This document shows, piece by piece, positions 5,744-32,658 of a DNA stretch of 64,000 nt; the first letter of the stretch is position 1, and every line of letters begins with the position of its first letter. The translations under genes and the position numbers were made by a program. The notes below the pieces were generated by a model. It made no database searches. It was given only the letters and a program-made list of their open reading frames with translations, and was not told the DNA's origin. The stretch is from an uncultured Thermoplasmata archaeon (GTDB taxonomy: Archaea > Thermoplasmatota > Thermoplasmata > UBA10834): the NCBI GenBank assembly GCA_963719945.1, contig CAVRDX010000004.1:288001-352000 (forward strand), in the 5' to 3' direction.

Positions 5744-7648
5744 TCATATCCCTAGAATGATGTGAGCCGCTGTTCCCATGATGAGCGCTATTGAGACGGA
5801 TCCCAACGCGACTAGGACTGTGCTCTTCATACCGAACTCCTTCACCATCACAGCGAACGCAGCGATGCACGGCAGGAATATGGCCATCACGAGTGCGAAC
5901 ACGAACATCTGTTCAGGGGACAGCTGAAGTGCGAGGTTGCTCGTTCCGAACAGTATCATCAACATCTGCAGTGCCATCTCCTTCCTGAGTATGCCGAACA
6001 CCAATGCGATCACGGTGACACCAGGAAGTCCTAGCAGAGTCATCATGAACCATTCGGATGGACCTATCAATTTGTCCAGCCAGCCGATCACCATCATCGT
6101 CTCAAGGACGATGCTGCCTGCAAGCAGAAGCGGGAAAGCTATCGTGAGGAACTCCTTGACGCGTAGGTATGTTTTCGACAAAATCTGCATCAAGGATGGA
6201 GTTCTCAGATCGGGTATCTCGAGGAATAATCCCGTCGGTTCGAACTTGATAATCTTATGCATCGCATAGCCGAGCGCGACCAGGATGCCCCCTAGTATGA
6301 AATATATCAGTAGCGCCCACCAGACACCTGCGTAATTCCCGACGGTTCCGATGATGATTGCAGTCTGCGCAGAGCAAGGCACCGCTATCGTGATGAGGGT
6401 GGCGAGGATCAGTCGCTCTCTCTTCGACCCCATCGCCCTGGTGGCGAGTATTGCCGGCACATTGCATCCATACCCAACGACCATCGGGATTACAGCTCGT
6501 CCGTGAAGGCCGAATCTGTGCATGACGCCATCGAGCAAAGAGACGACCCTTACGAGATATCCAGTGTCTTCAAGGACTGCAAGCATCAGGTAGAATACCA
6601 GTATGTACGGAACGACGATTGCTAGCATAGCCTCGATGCTAAGGTAGATCCCTTCGACGATTCCTTTTGCGATATCACTGGATAAACCGTTTTCAAAATC
6701 GTTGAAGGGTTGTCTAGCAAGGTCTGAATATGTCCCCACTAGCAATCCCTCGATTGCACCGCCGACGAATACCAGGATCAGGAATATTGACGCCAGTACC
6801 GCTACGAGGATCGGGATTCCAGTCGCGGGTCGAAGGGTCAAGTCTGAGATCAGGCTCCTGTCACGCCTCGCCGTGGCAACCTTACCGATGGCTTCATTCG
6901 AGATTCTGCCAGCTTCCCCAAATCTGTCCCTTTGAATGTGGACTATGACATCCTCGCCATGCTGCTTTTCGAAGTTCTTCCGCATCTCCTCAATGAGTGT
7001 TGCGACCTCTGGCGTGGTCTTCTCCATCACCTTCGGATCCCCGCTCAGCAATCTGATAGCGGCTGCTCTCAACGGGATGTCCCATCTACTTTCATCGAGT
7101 CGGGATTCGATCTTTCTGATCATCTCTTCTATGTGCGAATCGTAGCGGACCTTGAACTTGCTCTTCTTTCTAAGCTGGACTGAAGTGAACAAAAGCGAAT
7201 CGATCCCTTCTCCAGTGGTTGCCACTGTCGGGATGACTGGAATCGATAGAATCCTTTCGAGTCGCTCGACATCGATTATGAGCTTCTTCTTCCTCATGAT
7301 GTCGTACATGTTCAGCGAAGCGACGACATTGTATCCCGATTCTATGAGCTCGAAGAGGAACACAAGATTCCTCTCCAATCTAGAGGAATCGAGCACTGCA
7401 ATGACTGTATCTGGCCTTCTTTTGAAGAGAAGATCCGTGGCGACCCGTTCGTCATCAGTATTTCCGTCGAGTGAATATGTTCCCGGAAGGTCGATCACCG
7501 TGATAGTTGACCCCATGAACTTTGCCTGTCCTTCTGAGAATTCGACCGTGGTTCCAGGATAGTTGGAACTGATTACTCCTACTCCAGTCAGTTTTCCGAA
7601 TATCTGGCTCTTGCCAACATTCGGGTTCCCTGCGAGAGCGATCTCCAC
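5744..7648 (-). CDS. feoB: Ferrous iron transport protein B
   Basis: GNPNVGKS, NYPGTTVE, DLPGTYSL, membrane domain with GYGCNVPA and VPCSAQ. Confidence 0.96.
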   Translation of the reverse strand: MEIALAGNPNVGKSQIFGKLTGVGVISSNYPGTTVEFSEGQAKFMGSTITVIDLPGTYSLDGNTDDERVATDLLFKRRPDTVIAVLDSSRLERNLVFLFELIESGYNVVASLNMYDIMRKKKLIIDVERLERILSIPVIPTVATTGEGIDSLLFTSVQLRKKSKFKVRYDSHIEEMIRKIESRLDESRWDIPLRAAAIRLLSGDPKVMEKTTPEVATLIEEMRKNFEKQHGEDVIVHIQRDRFGEAGRISNEAIGKVATARRDRSLISDLTLRPATGIPILVAVLASIFLILVFVGGAIEGLLVGTYSDLARQPFNDFENGLSSDIAKGIVEGIYLSIEAMLAIVVPYILVFYLMLAVLEDTGYLVRVVSLLDGVMHRFGLHGRAVIPMVVGYGCNVPAILATRAMGSKRERLILATLITIAVPCSAQTAIIIGTVGNYAGVWWALLIYFILGGILVALGYAMHKIIKFEPTGLFLEIPDLRTPSLMQILSKTYLRVKEFLTIAFPLLLAGSIVLETMMVIGWLDKLIGPSEWFMMTLLGLPGVTVIALVFGILRKEMALQMLMILFGTSNLALQLSPEQMFVFALVMAIFLPCIAAFAVMVKEFGMKSTVLVALGSVSIALIMGTAAHIILGI

Positions 7649-8640: not shown

Positions 8641-9538
8641 TCATGAAACGTCAGTTTTTTCGAGTAGCCCGGATAATCGCTCCCAACACTCGTTCATCGC
8701 ATCGATGGCAGGACATTTCAATCGATCATCGATGACGTTTCCCTTTTGCCATCTCTTTCGCCAAGATCTCATCGTACGGTATCTTGCCAAGGAAATCAAC
8801 GCCTCTCTCCATTGCCATTCTCTCAATGGAACCCGTGGCGTCAGCGTTGATGTCTGCCCTATTCACGACGATGGCAGCTCTGATCCCAAAACCATGTACC
8901 AGGTCCAGTATTCTCTCGAGATCGCTGAGGCCAGAATTGGTCGGTTCAGTGACAACCACAGCAATGTTCGCGCCTGACAATGATGATATGACCGGGCATC
9001 CAACTCCCGGTGGTCCATCAACGAGAATGAATGGAAGATCATGTTCTCTTGCCATCATCCGGGCTTTTTGTTTTACTATCGCCACCAGCTTTCCCGAGTT
9101 CTCGGCACCTGGTTCCAGGAGCGCATGTATCATTGTTCCGCAGTCGGTTTCTGAGACGAACCAATCACCGACATACCTGTCCTTCATCTCGACTGCCCCA
9201 TTGTCACATATCCTGGCACATAGAGCGCATCCTTCACACGCATCTGCATCTATTCTGACCTTGCCAATGCCAGGATTGCCTGTGCTTAGTATGGCATCGA
9301 ATCTGCATGCAGGGATGCACCAACCACAACTGGAGCACATGGTATCATTTATCTCCGCAATCTTCGAACCGATGAAACGCTCACTCTGAACCATCTTTGG
9401 CCTAAGCATCAGATGAAGGTTCGGCGCATCGACGTCACAATCCGCCAGCACTTTATCATGCATCACAGAGGCCAGAAATCCTAGAAATGTGGTCTTGCCA
9501 GTTCCACCTTTTCCGCTTATTACGACGATTTCCTTCAT
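8641..9538 (-). CDS. MinD-superfamily P-loop ATPase with inserted 2x[4Fe-4S] ferredoxin (apparent frameshift near 8738-8747)
   Basis: SGKGGTGKT, DCDVDAPN, CSSCGWC/CEGCALC, DGPPGVGCP. The plausible C-terminus (NVIDDRLKCPAIDAMNECWERL) continues in the next frame to 8641. Confidence 0.88.
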
Positions 9539-28094: not shown

Positions 28095-28171
28095 GGGCCC
28101 GTGGGGTAGTTAGGATATCCTTCTGGCCTTCGAAGCCGGTGACGTGGGTTCAAATCCCACCGGGCCCGCCA
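28095..28171 (+). tRNA. tRNA-Arg(TCG), CCA encoded
   Basis: GGGCCCG...CGGGCCC-G-CCA, anticodon arm CTGGC-CTTCGAA-GCCGG, T-loop GGTTCAAATCC. Confidence 0.96.
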
Positions 28172-28234
28172 GACTTCCCAAATACTTATTGTGGGAAGGG
28201 TCATATAGGTGGAATTGGGTCGTAGCGTGGGGAC

Positions 28235-28870
28235 ATGGCATCGAAAGCGCGACTATTTCAAGTAAATCGACGAATGCTGTACGGAATTCTGGCTCTCGCA
28301 GTTGCCGTTACTGTGATTTTGGCTGGTATCTTGTACTATCTGGATGCCCACCGATACCCGTCCGAAGAAACTCCTCTCGTGTTGCGCTCCTGGGGAATCA
28401 GCTGGGTCATGGAGCAGGAAGATCTCGATCATCTATTTCTAGTGTCTCCGTTTGAGAACATTAGTTTGTTGTGGACCGATTTCGGTGGCGTCTATTACGG
28501 GAGCCCACCTCTGAATTCGACATTCCCTCGGGTGAGCATATCTCAATTCGAGCTGCCGGACAACGTGACAACATTGTTCGAGACTTACATCGTCGGTTGG
28601 CATTCCGACAACACTGTGAATGGAGTCCGCATCATTGGCGCGTACGGAGTCTTCATAACGGACGAGAATGAGAACGGCTTGTTTGACTATGGGGACGCAA
28701 TCTCTCTCTTCTATGGAGTCTATGAGAATGGCACACTGACTCAACAGGGATTTCAAAGCGCTACTGAATATGGCATAGGACTATACTCTTCAGAAAATCT
28801 CTTGCATTCATCCATACAGTTCAAGTACGCAATCCATCACGAAAGGCTTTACGCCTGGGCATCAAATTAG
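28235..28870 (+). CDS. Membrane-anchored hypothetical exported protein (cassette 1 cargo)
   Basis: Single N-terminal TM; acidic DENENGLFDYGD loop resembling a Ca-binding DxDxDG motif; GGGGA RBS. Confidence 0.75.
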   Translation: MASKARLFQVNRRMLYGILALAVAVTVILAGILYYLDAHRYPSEETPLVLRSWGISWVMEQEDLDHLFLVSPFENISLLWTDFGGVYYGSPPLNSTFPRVSISQFELPDNVTTLFETYIVGWHSDNTVNGVRIIGAYGVFITDENENGLFDYGDAISLFYGVYENGTLTQQGFQSATEYGIGLYSSENLLHSSIQFKYAIHHERLYAWASN

Positions 28871-28896
28871 CCTGAAGATTGGATGGAAAGAAAGAG

Positions 28897-28988
28897 GGTT
28901 TTGTGCCCGAGTGCATCTTCCCCGTGATTGAATCTCTGAGTTAGACTACTGGTCTAGCGGCATGGCGATACCCACCGGGCCCGCCACC
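28897..28988 (+). repeat. Conserved ~90-bp cassette-end element with tRNA-Arg 3' core, copy 1
   Basis: 28925-28988 aligns ungapped to 30587-30650 at 51/64 positions, last 27 identical; similarity continues upstream (TTTGTG..CGARTGCATC..CCC). Confidence 0.9.
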
Positions 28989-29090
28989 ATCCATAGCCAG
29001 TAATCAAGTCTCGCTTCTCAATCAGGGTCTTTAGTGTGCCGGGGTTCCTACCATTTACCGAAGGTTCGTGGGCCAAGGATTCGGTTTGAA

Positions 29091-30467
29091 TCACCGGTCC
29101 TCATGAAGTCCCGTGACATCCATCCATTCCTGGTGTTCTCTCCTCTTCCTACGTCTATGCATTATTAGGCCCACGACCGCGACAGCAACGAATCCGACTA
29201 GAGCCGTCCGCAAGCCAGAATCGTACAGCGCGTACTCAAATCGATCTGGGTCGAGCTGGCTGGTCACATAGACAGTCACAGAAGTCTCGCCACTATCTGG
29301 AATGCGCACCTTTTGATAATAGACCACGTGTACATCCCGGCTCTCATCTGTCGCGATCGCGATGCTCTCCTCCCAAGACCATCCTTGACAATCGTCTAGT
29401 ATCTGCACCTTCCATGCTCCATCTGCGTTCGTACAGTATCTCACGGTGTGGTTGGCAGTCTCTCCATCATAGTCCTCGACAAAATACCCCATGTGGATAT
29501 CTCCGTCTGAGTCGACTGTGATCGCCACACCTGTACCATATCCTTTCTCATTTCCCCCATATGCCACATCTTCGCTTTCCCAATCGCCATCAGCATTGGT
29601 GAAGTAGCATAAGCTGTAATTGTCTCCCTTGCTTCTGTAAGCGCTGATGTACGCATTACCTGAGGCGTCATGACAGAGCGATTTCTCGCCAGGGTATCCG
29701 CCCAGATTTGGAATAACGGTGGCGTCAGTCAACTCGCCGTTCGATATGACACTGTAATTGAGTTGCCATGAGATGATAGTGTCCCATCCTAACAGGTCGT
29801 AGGTCGTATAGATCATGCCTATTGATCCGTCCGGGCGACTGTCGACATCATCGATTGAGAATACTCTGTACGGAATATATGACTCCTTTAGAATCGTGCT
29901 GTCCCAGCCTTGCGGAGTGCGTATCATATCGATGATGGATGAATTCATGTTCACGGTTGACTGCCCGGTATCTCTTGAGTAAATCAGGTGGACATTGTCC
30001 TGAGCATCGATTGCAACCTTGGCAGACGAAGGGTACCCCGTTATGTTGATCATCTCGCTTTCCCATTCACCGCCAGCGTTTGTGGCAAATAAGATGTGCT
30101 GACCATATAAGTTCATGACCGGTTTGTACAACGATGTGCACACGTATACTCTATCTTGGGAATCCAGTGCTATCGAAGCACCCTCATGGTCCCAGGATAG
30201 ATATGACAAGCAGGTGAGGTCCCATTCGCCTCCTACTCTCTGTCCGTAAAGGAGTGCATAATATGGACCGTATACTCCGATGTATGCGAGCTGAAGCTCT
30301 CCTTCAGAATCCCACGCCAACTGGTAGAACCCGTCTCCGGCAGATGTGTAACCGAGTTCTTGAGTTGGCCACCGAGAACTTGTCATGTACTCCCAGGCAA
30401 AGCTCGATGTGAAAACCAGGGCGGCTACGACAACTATGCCAACAGTTGCTTTCCTAGTTGTGTCCAT
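29091..30467 (-). CDS. Exported beta-propeller-like repeat protein with N- and C-terminal TM (cassette 2 cargo)
   Basis: Repeats F/YxTNAxGxWxxE and SIAxDSxxxVHxxY; ATG 30467 after GGAGTGG; C-terminal TM followed by HRRRKRR. Confidence 0.85.
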   Translation of the reverse strand: MDTTRKATVGIVVVAALVFTSSFAWEYMTSSRWPTQELGYTSAGDGFYQLAWDSEGELQLAYIGVYGPYYALLYGQRVGGEWDLTCLSYLSWDHEGASIALDSQDRVYVCTSLYKPVMNLYGQHILFATNAGGEWESEMINITGYPSSAKVAIDAQDNVHLIYSRDTGQSTVNMNSSIIDMIRTPQGWDSTILKESYIPYRVFSIDDVDSRPDGSIGMIYTTYDLLGWDTIISWQLNYSVISNGELTDATVIPNLGGYPGEKSLCHDASGNAYISAYRSKGDNYSLCYFTNADGDWESEDVAYGGNEKGYGTGVAITVDSDGDIHMGYFVEDYDGETANHTVRYCTNADGAWKVQILDDCQGWSWEESIAIATDESRDVHVVYYQKVRIPDSGETSVTVYVTSQLDPDRFEYALYDSGLRTALVGFVAVAVVGLIMHRRRKRREHQEWMDVTGLHEDR

Positions 30468-30559
30468 TTCCACTCCACCGTGCAAATCCCAAGATGCTTT
30501 TTCAGTATTAAGAATCCACGTGTGCTGCAGAGTCGATATGCACGAAGAGAACTGTAAGT

Positions 30560-30650
30560 GGTTTGTGTCGAATGCATCATACCCATTGATTGAACCTCCG
30601 TGTCTGACTACTGGCACGGAATGATGGCGATACCCACCGGGCCCGCCACC
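30560..30650 (+). repeat. Conserved ~90-bp cassette-end element with tRNA-Arg 3' core, copy 2
   Basis: TGATTGAAcCTCcGtGTctGACTACTGG-N9-ATGGCGATACCCACCGGGCCCGCCACC, see copy 1. Confidence 0.9.
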
Positions 30651-30768
30651 CTTTCATCATGGGTTGAGCTAGTGAATCTCTATGTGGGCGAACACAATCA
30701 AAGACAGCTATTAATTGCTCCACATGGTTCTGCAGTACGATGATTGGTCGTGATGCGGAGAACGATGT

Positions 30769-31770
30769 ATGATGTCTAGAAGAACTCATGCGGGTTGGCA
30801 AGTACGCCGAGCATCTTCTGACGATGCAGGGCCCATAGTGGCGCTAATCAACGCCCACGCGCGGCACTACTATGGCGAGGACCGTATTGGATTGGATGAA
30901 GTGAGGACGTGGTTCACCTCCCCGGGCGTAGGACAGGACGACACGCAATCTTGGTGGTGGGATGACGGCACGCTTGTGGCTTATGCACAGGTCTACCGAC
31001 CTGGATTTCCGGGTATGTGGGACGTACTACACGATGTTACGGTTCACCCAGATGAGGCTGGTAACGACGAGCTTTGGAACGATGCCTTTGCATGGTGTGA
31101 CCAGTATCAATGGAAGCTGCGACATCAGTCTAGCACATCACATACGAGCATGGTCTGCGGGGCTCGCATCCATGAGAACGACGTAGACAAGCGTAGACAA
31201 TACGAATCACGGGACTTCAAACATATTCGAAACGAGACTCTGATGCGGATTAGATTTCCAGAGGTCGTGTCGAAGGACGTGGCAAATCCAAGCGGGGTCA
31301 CGATACGCGAACTCGACCTGGAGACTGATATGGATGCCTATGCGATGGCTTATGGAGAGGCGTTTCGCGATCACTGGGGCCACGTCGACATTCCGCAAGA
31401 CGAGCAGGTGCGCAGAAAGAAGGCGGAGTTCAAGTCCTGGGGTCAGATGTACGTGCCAGGCCTGTGGTTCGTCGCTCTTGACGGTGACACAATCGTGGGG
31501 AGCGTCGGCAGCTTCCTGAACTTCGGCAATGTCCCAGGACGCTGCTATCTCTATCATGTATTCGTGCGTCGCGCCTGGCGTAACCGCAGGATAGCTACGA
31601 CGCTTCTCCGCACCACATTCCATGAGCTGCAGCAACGCGGTGGGAGGATCGTTGAGCTGCATGTCGATTCTGACAACATGACGTACGGCCTTGAGCTCTA
31701 TCGCGGTCTTGGTATGAAACCGGTTTGGCACCAACGTTTGTACGAGAAGGCGGTCCCGATATCCTGCTAA
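30769..31770 (+). CDS. Tandem GNAT N-acetyltransferase (MshD-like architecture)
   Basis: EAFRDHWG, VFVRRAWRNRRIATTLL, LHVDSDN..GLELYRGLGM. Confidence 0.85.
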   Translation: MMSRRTHAGWQVRRASSDDAGPIVALINAHARHYYGEDRIGLDEVRTWFTSPGVGQDDTQSWWWDDGTLVAYAQVYRPGFPGMWDVLHDVTVHPDEAGNDELWNDAFAWCDQYQWKLRHQSSTSHTSMVCGARIHENDVDKRRQYESRDFKHIRNETLMRIRFPEVVSKDVANPSGVTIRELDLETDMDAYAMAYGEAFRDHWGHVDIPQDEQVRRKKAEFKSWGQMYVPGLWFVALDGDTIVGSVGSFLNFGNVPGRCYLYHVFVRRAWRNRRIATTLLRTTFHELQQRGGRIVELHVDSDNMTYGLELYRGLGMKPVWHQRLYEKAVPISC

Positions 31771-31899
31771 CAGCCATCGTCTTCATGCTATTCTCATCGT
31801 AGCTCGCCCTGGTATGATAGAGCCTCCCTGAAATATCTCCGCTGATAACCGTTGCATCGATAATCCATATCTTTTCAGTCACTGCCAGTATCTGAATGA

Positions 31900-32658
31900 C
31901 TAGGCGAGTTCCTTCTCGCGGAACAGGTACGCGCCGAGGACAAGGAATATGATCGTCAGAACGATTATCACGAGGACTGAGTCGAAGAAGCCAGTGGCCT
32001 GTTCGTAATGGCTGATGCTTCCATAGTCGACCCATTCGAAGCCTATGCTTCTCAGATAATGTCTGATGGACGCTTTCTGTATCACGCCAGGGAGCGATCC
32101 TATGAATGCTTCCCATATGAATGCGTAGAAAAGGCCGAAGAACACCGGCTTCTTGAACAGAACGCCCATGGATAGGAACAGTGCAGAATACACAACCGAA
32201 CCAATGATGACAAGGCCTGTGAATGCAAGGTATATGCTCAGGCTATCTGAGTCGATCCCTTTCTGAGAGAAGAACGCAAGGAACCCTGCGGTGTTGATGA
32301 TGATCATGGATATTGCGACTGCTATCACCAATGGCACGTAATAGCCGGCATACGAGTATGCTCGGTCGAGAGGCGCAGTGGCCACGTGCGTGATGCTCTT
32401 GTCATCTATCTCGTCACGGATCAGTGACGAGCCGTAGATCATAGCCATCACAGGCATGAAGAACAGAAGTATGAGTGTGTCGAGGAGATTGACCCCCTCG
32501 TCCAGTGGCTCAACATCCTGTGTGCCCGCATATCCCATCACGGCTGCGACGAACACCGCGACCAGCGCGGAAATCACTGCTTTTCGGCTGAACAGCAGCT
32601 TCTTGATGGAGTACCGTGTTATCGCGATTATCCCGGTGAATGCTCTGTCAAGATCCAT
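31900..32658 (-). CDS. ABC-2 type exporter permease
   Basis: About six TMs, IRDEIDDKSI, ends FREKEL. Confidence 0.88.
   Translation of the reverse strand: MDLDRAFTGIIAITRYSIKKLLFSRKAVISALVAVFVAAVMGYAGTQDVEPLDEGVNLLDTLILLFFMPVMAMIYGSSLIRDEIDDKSITHVATAPLDRAYSYAGYYVPLVIAVAISMIIINTAGFLAFFSQKGIDSDSLSIYLAFTGLVIIGSVVYSALFLSMGVLFKKPVFFGLFYAFIWEAFIGSLPGVIQKASIRHYLRSIGFEWVDYGSISHYEQATGFFDSVLVIIVLTIIFLVLGAYLFREKELA

Follow-up and report, generated by a model that had tools for sequence, protein, structure and literature searches.

A probable accretion island of integrase-less single-gene units behind tRNA-Arg(TCG) in an uncultured Thermoplasmata archaeon

The window analysed here is a 64-kb stretch from the genome of an uncultured Thermoplasmata archaeon (G000:C4:288001-352000; the G000 assembly comprises 1.78 Mb in 4 contigs and is 87% complete). 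It contains a gene for tRNA-Arg(TCG), followed by two short units that each end in a copy of the tRNA 3' end. The tRNA gene (28095-28171, + strand) was identified with ARAGORN and by a score of 59 bits on the Rfam tRNA model, and it represents the putative integration target (attB/attL). A pattern search with its last 16 nucleotides (nt), which form the core (28156-28171, +; CCCACCGGGCCCGCCA), gave three exact matches in the window, at 28156, 28971 and 30633, all on the + strand. Three matches were reached in 0 of 100 shuffles, which corroborates the recurrence reported in the initial annotation of the locus. Each of the two distal cores is preceded by a non-coding upstream arm of ~74 nt, designated P, whereas the tRNA gene itself has no such arm. 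Copy a of the P arm (28897-28970, +) scored 85.8 bits (E 8e-25) with covariance model R1 and was also detected by nhmmer (E 2e-10); it is preceded by a purine-rich run and includes the motifs TGATTGA and CTACTGG. Copy b (30560-30632, +) scored 83.1 bits (E 6e-24) with the same covariance model. The adjoining cores, copy 1 at 28971-28986 (+) and copy 2 at 30633-30648 (+), both match the 3' end of the tRNA in 16 of 16 positions. The two distal copies are ~78% identical over 90 nt and have in common an exact 27-nt block (28962-28988 and 30624-30650), inside which core copy 1 is located. The upstream sequence that the initial annotation had described as shared by the two copies and absent from the tRNA is thus a genuine feature of the locus.

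Unit 1 (28172-28988, +, 817 bp) begins directly after the tRNA gene, and its tRNA-proximal end lacks a recognisable P', the inverted copy of the arm. Unit 2 (28987-30650, +, 1664 bp) retains both arms and both flanking cores intact. Its P' arm (28987-29050, - strand) was recognised by an nhmmer match on the - strand (E 0.002), by its translation and by the palindrome geometry described below. Core copy 2 forms the distal, attR-type junction, and no P' arm follows it. An inverted repeat, CTTCCCA-N11-TGGGAAG, is located at 28174-28198, directly after the tRNA gene, and is kept in the related genome G010; it could either terminate transcription of the tRNA or belong to the promoter region of cargo gene 1.

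Each unit is filled by one intact open reading frame (ORF). The two ORFs are unrelated, have opposite orientations and do not encode integrases, as the initial annotation had stated, and a Pfam search of the window proteins detected no PF00589 integrase. Cargo gene 1 (28235-28870, +) encodes a protein of 211 residues with one N-terminal hydrophobic helix, which is probably membrane-anchored; neither a Pfam family nor an Atlas look-alike was found for it. The counterpart in G010 is 91% identical in amino acid sequence, and relatives with 27-31% identity occur in three other genomes; one of these, in G036, is positioned directly upstream of an arm at another locus. Cargo gene 2 (29091-30467, -) encodes a protein of 458 residues that starts with a signal or anchor. 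Its body is rich in repeats, resembles a beta-propeller and has a weak, sub-threshold match to BNR_4, and its C-terminal part consists of a hydrophobic helix and, after it, the basic stretch RRRKRR. The protein has no relative in the PDB and, by prediction, is probably exposed at the cell surface. Its homologues, with 55-64% amino acid identity, are patchily distributed (G009, G019 and G065). The gene in G019 is located directly behind tRNA-Arg(TCG) without detectable arms, and that in G065 lies beside tRNA-Ala.

The P arm constitutes one half of an imperfect palindrome, the inverted copy of which, P', is located on the other side of the core. Full junctions from three genomes, which represent three genera and two core types, have the common geometry TGATTGA-N17-CTGG-N44-CCAG-N16/17-TCAATCA. 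The midpoint of the palindrome falls inside the tRNA-derived core, where strand exchange would be expected. P' directly follows the tRNA gene in G005, G006, G017, G026 and G036. The P' arm of the window reads ..TLIEKRDLITGYGW on the - strand, like the C-terminal tails of integrases from related genomes; its stop codon has been lost, and its translation still reads LIEKRDLITGYG. Read in the P orientation, the arm has stops in every frame and 1-nt insertions or deletions between copies, which rules out a coding remnant in that orientation. The P arm thus repeats the last ~20 codons of the integrase gene in inverted, non-coding form, and this is why the initial annotation rightly found no reading frame conserved between the two copies. 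The arms are putative integrase-binding sites.

The integrases to which the arm sequence can be traced are encoded in related genomes. In G004, a 377-residue tyrosine recombinase (PF00589, 52.7 bits) is encoded directly behind tRNA-Arg(CCT) and reads toward the tRNA gene, so that its tail, ..SPLIEPRADYTGYA and the stop codon, is encoded by P'. A P arm with a core lies ~6.9 kb beyond the integrase gene, and is followed by two integrase-less units of 1.3 and 2.3 kb. The 6.9-kb autonomous element of G004 also encodes a serine recombinase (Resolvase domain, 138 bits, and HTH_7; L060 3653-4471, -), which adjoins the tyrosine integrase. The G006 integrase, 51% identical to that of G004, ends with ..TPQIEKENDYTGYA and a stop codon within a P-core-P' junction, and the G027 integrase, 37% identical, ends with ..SRLIERDKYLSGYA and a stop codon ~2 nt from the 3' end of tRNA-Arg(TCG). 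The tails of the integrases of relatives follow the pattern ..LIE...GYA, with the stop codon ~2 nt from the end of the tRNA. In other Thermoplasmata, among them Methanomassiliicoccales, integrases of this lineage end with ..GYA or ..GYG and a stop codon 1-3 nt from a convergent tRNA gene (L111, L113, L115 and L116, with the convergent tRNAs Pro-CGG, Gly-TCC, Glu-TTC and Arg-CCT). Therefore, the overlap of the integrase tail with the attachment site may be general in the class. The integrases of the family are generic tyrosine recombinases, which reach 45-63 bits on the XerA model (cut-off 220).

PF00589 matches only two genes in the G000 genome: one that is XerA-like, on contig C1, and one for an integrase of the element type, on contig C2 (21651-22748; L077, 21651-22900). 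The latter protein has 365 residues and is 34-38% identical to the integrases of G004 and G006. Behind its gene come a short arm (CTGATTGAAGATTGGCCAGT) and a core that matches the 3' end of tRNA-Leu(CAG) exactly. The gene for tRNA-Leu(CAG) is located at 900492-900577 of contig C1, near the end of that contig, and an island at tRNA-Leu(CAG) may connect contigs C1 and C2. The initial annotation had proposed to look for a tyrosine recombinase elsewhere; the core associated with the element-type integrase is that of tRNA-Leu(CAG) and not of tRNA-Arg(TCG).

The family to which the archaeon belongs was searched with a sequence-only covariance model calculated from nine arm copies. The arm is present in 33 of the 46 genomes of the family, in all four genera and in several copies per genome, and it was found in 0 of 135 sampled genomes from 28 other families of the class. 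The copies often form same-strand runs with distances of 0.5-2.5 kb. An alignment of 68 matches delimits a conserved arm of ~57-65 nt, GGGTTTR..CCGAGC.CA..CCC.CTGATTGAA-N11-GAC.TACTGGC. The sequence after the arm varies: it may derive from the terminal part of tRNA-Arg(TCG), from that of tRNA-Arg(CCT) or from those of further tRNAs, and in some cases it extends back to cover the T-loop. Cores of Arg-TCG, Arg-CCT, Pro-CGG, Ile-GAT, Val-GAC and Leu-CAG are all attached to this one arm, and arms were found downstream of the genes for tRNA-Arg(TCG), Arg(CCT), Pro(CGG), Ile(GAT) and Val(GAC). The G000 genome contains four more arms with other cores, on contigs C1 and C2, and no Arg-type copies of the element beyond the two in the window. 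The non-coding P arms are ~70-78% identical between genera whose housekeeping proteins share only ~60-65% identity. In genus g2, the place of P' behind many cores is taken by another conserved motif, roughly GGAAAAGCCCATAGG.GAGGAAAGGCGAT (L027 ~9335-9375, L061 ~7290-7330, L053, L063 and L072; compare ~28191-28219 of the window). The start of unit 1 in the window (GGGAAGGGTCATATAGGTGGAATTGGG) is loosely similar to this motif of genus g2, which may be another type of left end or a promoter.

Defining a unit as the interval from a tRNA gene or an arm to the next arm on the same strand enabled us to map 25 units, the median length of which is ~1.04 kb. No trace of an integrase is left in 19 of the 25 units, three contain integrase remnants, which are C-terminal pieces of 46-68 residues, and the three units with a full integrase gene measure 3.3-7.8 kb. 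A C-terminal integrase remnant of 68 residues is located at tRNA-Arg(TCG) in G026, and a family-wide protein search identified dozens of C-terminal integrase fragments of many lengths. Since integrase remnants lie beside some of the arms, some units presumably arose through integrase loss. Most of the small units contain one intact ORF, which spans 60-90% of the unit in either orientation. The arrangement found in the window recurs in a metagenome contig from a related species, in which two units, ~1.0 and 1.2 kb long, lie behind tRNA-Arg(TCG). Both contain P', P and one ORF, and the two ORFs have opposite orientations. Metagenomes were also scanned for the empty site and for a version of the locus without unit 1; only two contigs from related species were obtained, and no variant of the G000 species.

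Four species of genus g1 share the flanks of the island, with aconitase genes on one side and an ABC-2 permease gene on the other. In the window, the upstream flank encodes the large and small subunits of an aconitase-family enzyme, and GNAT acetyltransferase and ABC-2 transporter genes are located downstream. The DNA between the flanks differs among the species. With units 1 and 2 of the window labelled cas1 and cas2, and the other units at tRNA-Arg(TCG) labelled casX, casY and casZ, the order is cas1 then cas2 in G000, cas1 then casX in G010, and casY then casX in G006, while G005 contains casZ. The cas1 sequences of G000 and G010 have 94% nucleotide identity over 910 bp, and casX of G006 matches with 85% identity over ~1 kb. 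Variable gene content behind tRNA-Arg(TCG), which the initial annotation had anticipated, is thus borne out by the differing unit combinations of these species. The segment between the last core and the permease gene also varies: it holds the GNAT gene in G000, a 1.4-kb segment common to G005 and G010, and 2.7 kb of other DNA in G006. In the window, this species-specific segment without arms extends over 30651-31824 and contains the GNAT acetyltransferase gene (30769-31770, +), and the common flank restarts ~80-140 nt ahead of the ABC-2 permease gene (31900-32658, -). Because no arms were detected in 30651-31824 and this segment varies in the sister species, the variable island reaches past the recognisable units. 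The tRNA-Val(TAC) gene in the window was checked for a second island, and no repeated core was found there.

Based on the arms, the integrases of relatives and the variation among sister species, we consider it likely that the locus is a small accretion island of integrase-less derivatives of tRNA-integrating tyrosine-integrase elements, comparable to the cis-mobilisable elements (CIMEs) or the tycheposons of bacteria. Since the arm is one half of the palindromic docking site of a tRNA-integrating family, the locus would be a hotspot of gene accretion. The attP site of such elements is an imperfect palindrome, in which the ~65-nt P arm and the inverted P' lie on either side of a core with the same sequence as the tRNA 3' end. 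In autonomous members, the integrase gene is oriented toward the core, and P' makes up its last ~20 codons. Integration would regenerate the tRNA gene and place P' beside it, with P and a copy of the core at the far end, and repeated integration would stack the units. The units of the window appear to be derived from such elements by integrase loss. Unit 2 carries every cis site expected for excision, in the order core, P', P and core. As unit 2 keeps both arms and perfect cores, it could be excised or re-inserted by an integrase supplied in trans, in the same manner as bacterial CIMEs. Unit 1 has lost its P', or never had one, and is probably fixed. Mobilisation in trans is plausible, and we infer that units may still be mobile. 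The modules postulated in the initial annotation, bounded by attachment sites, devoid of integrase genes and endowed with a shared arm and differing cargo, are retained in this explanation, but the arm is the attP half of ordinary tyrosine-integrase elements.

Several observations weigh against the accretion of integrase-less derivatives at this tRNA gene. Unit 1 has no P' arm, and the G000 assembly, which is 87% complete, does not contain an integrase with the Arg-TCG core, the sole element-type integrase having the core of tRNA-Leu(CAG). In the complete genome G018, arms with Arg-type cores are located 70 kb and 1.3 Mb from tRNA-Arg(TCG) (L061 and L027 at ~347-369 kb of the chromosome, and L028 at ~1.622 Mb), and one same-strand run of arms mixes cores of several tRNA types. 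Simple accretion at one tRNA gene does not account for this arrangement. Furthermore, the distal cores of G006 have decayed, with 3-4 mismatches, as is expected of relics and not of maintained sites.

Two further explanations concern the fate of the units after their arrival. The chance that they are inert relics falls slightly short of even. Two full-length elements would have been inserted and subsequently whittled by deletion, and the differences between species would have been generated by homologous recombination between the ~90-bp repeats or by DNA uptake, and not through site-specific recombination acting on the small units. This is consistent with the C-terminal integrase fragments of many lengths that are scattered across the family, with the 68-residue remnant at tRNA-Arg(TCG) in G026, with the lack of P' in unit 1, and with the cas2 homologue that is positioned behind the tRNA gene without detectable arms in G019. 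In addition, integrase loss from archaeal integrated elements has been documented (PMC8371274). Against this reading, what is left of the arms in unit 2 is precisely the minimal sequence at either end, together with perfect cores, and most of the 25 mapped units are whole single genes tightly framed by arms rather than gene fragments.

It is possible, if rather doubtful, that the units belong to a working gene-capture system, in which ~1-kb single-gene units with ~65-nt inverted arms are kept recombination-proficient, and tyrosine integrases encoded elsewhere capture, excise, re-insert and reorder them in trans at several tRNA genes. This corresponds to the interpretation in the initial annotation, with the tRNA gene as an integron-like platform. 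The arm would provide a common handle and the tRNA-derived core an address label, which together would constitute an analogue of the integron that is independent of IntI and attC. The dominance of small units with one ORF points in this direction, as do the two arms and perfect cores of unit 2, and the identity of the 27-nt block in arms that otherwise differ by 22%. The similarity of P arms between genera exceeds that of housekeeping proteins (~70-78% as opposed to ~60-65%), and sister species hold different combinations of units. Relatives of cas2 adjoin tRNA-Arg in a second genus and tRNA-Ala in yet another. On the other hand, no cognate integrase is encoded in the G000 assembly, a few insertions or losses suffice to produce the differences between species, and the integrase remnants and decayed cores fit passive decay. 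A third alternative interprets the element of ~91 nt as a small RNA or as a signal for tRNA-like 3' processing, with its 5' GGGUUUG paired to the acceptor 3' strand. It is highly improbable and was rejected. In the proposed 7-bp stem, 85% of the cells can pair over 66 distinct copies, but shuffles reach 83.8%, and 50 of 500 do as well as the real copies, so that the acceptor-like stem shows no covariation. Neither an Rfam match nor a convincing consensus fold in RNAalifold was obtained, and beyond the core there are inverted copies that encode an integrase tail.

Little is understood of gene flow in uncultured Thermoplasmata. The cis site, consisting of arm, core and spacing, and the matching integrase family together explain variable islands behind several tRNA genes throughout the family. 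The geometry of the site and its overlap with the integrase tail are handles for in vitro recombination tests and for the automated detection of islands. Mobility of the small units in trans, if confirmed, would mean that a capture system resembling integrons arose independently in archaea. Even if the units are relics, the arrays show the capture and retention of single surface-protein genes behind tRNA genes.

The locus resembles an integron in outcome but is not one. As in integrons and in clusters of attC sites lacking integron integrases (CALINs), small, mostly single-gene and promoter-poor modules with imperfect-palindrome ends are arranged in arrays, often without a nearby integrase. 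The archaeal integrons described by Ghaly et al. (10.1101/2022.02.06.479319) are classical IntI/attC systems. In contrast, the integrases of the present family reach 22-32 bits on TIGR02249 (cut-off 265) and do not qualify as IntI, and the platform is the 3' end of a tRNA gene instead of an attI site beside intI. Single-stranded DNA of the P-core-P' site folds no better than shuffles (z -0.60 and +0.96), and an attC-like hairpin was therefore rejected. The site is conserved in sequence and not as a hairpin, and its palindrome is split between adjacent units around the tRNA-derived core. The locus is excluded from the integrons by its integrase, its type of site and its platform.

Archaeal integrated elements are known to be inserted at tRNA 3' ends by tyrosine recombinases, to integrate in tandem, and to capture genes upon integrase loss (PMC8371274). 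Integrases of the pNOB8 and SSV types are distinguished among them (PMC8371274; She et al. 2001, cited there). The att core of SSV-type elements is located inside the integrase ORF, whereas the full-length ORFs described here end 2-3 nt from the tRNA gene and are intact when integrated. As the core does not include the stop codon, the integrase gene is not split by integration, and the elements are not of the SSV type. PMC8371274 makes no mention of an integrase 3' end that serves as an att arm with an inverted non-coding copy, nor of family-wide arrays of ~1-kb units, and nothing on the arm, on its overlap with the integrase tail or on such arrays in Thermoplasmata was found in the open-access text of the literature. 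Tandem accretion accompanied by integrase loss is already known in both bacteria and archaea (PMC5704250, 10.1101/2020.12.28.424599, PMC8371274).

In the tycheposon islands of Prochlorococcus, new arrivals push older ones distally, and the islands contain partial tRNAs, integrase fragments and adaptive cargo (10.1101/2020.12.28.424599). When compared by the island architecture described in that work, the elements of the present family are similar in being tyrosine-recombinase elements at tRNA genes. They differ in the integrase lineage and the domain of the host, in the conserved pair of arms, and in the predominance of integrase-less single-gene units. CIMEs, known from streptococcal ICE and IME biology together with tandem accretion at the att sites of islands of the ICESt1/ICESt3 type, have lost their integration genes but still possess attL and attR (PMC5704250). 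Successive site-specific integrations stack them behind the target gene, and a related integrase could in principle mobilise them. Unit 2 is CIME-like in being bounded by attachment sites, lacking an integration gene and carrying one cargo gene, and unit 1, without P', is so in part. Related integrase-bearing elements with the same arms exist, one of them at tRNA-Arg(TCG) in G027, and integrase remnants are present in G026. Unlike CIMEs, the units described here reside in archaeal hosts, have no conjugation genes and are mostly single-gene units of ~1 kb. Their arms form a ~65-nt palindrome that overlaps the 3' coding end of the integrase gene, and one family of arms is combined with several tRNA targets.

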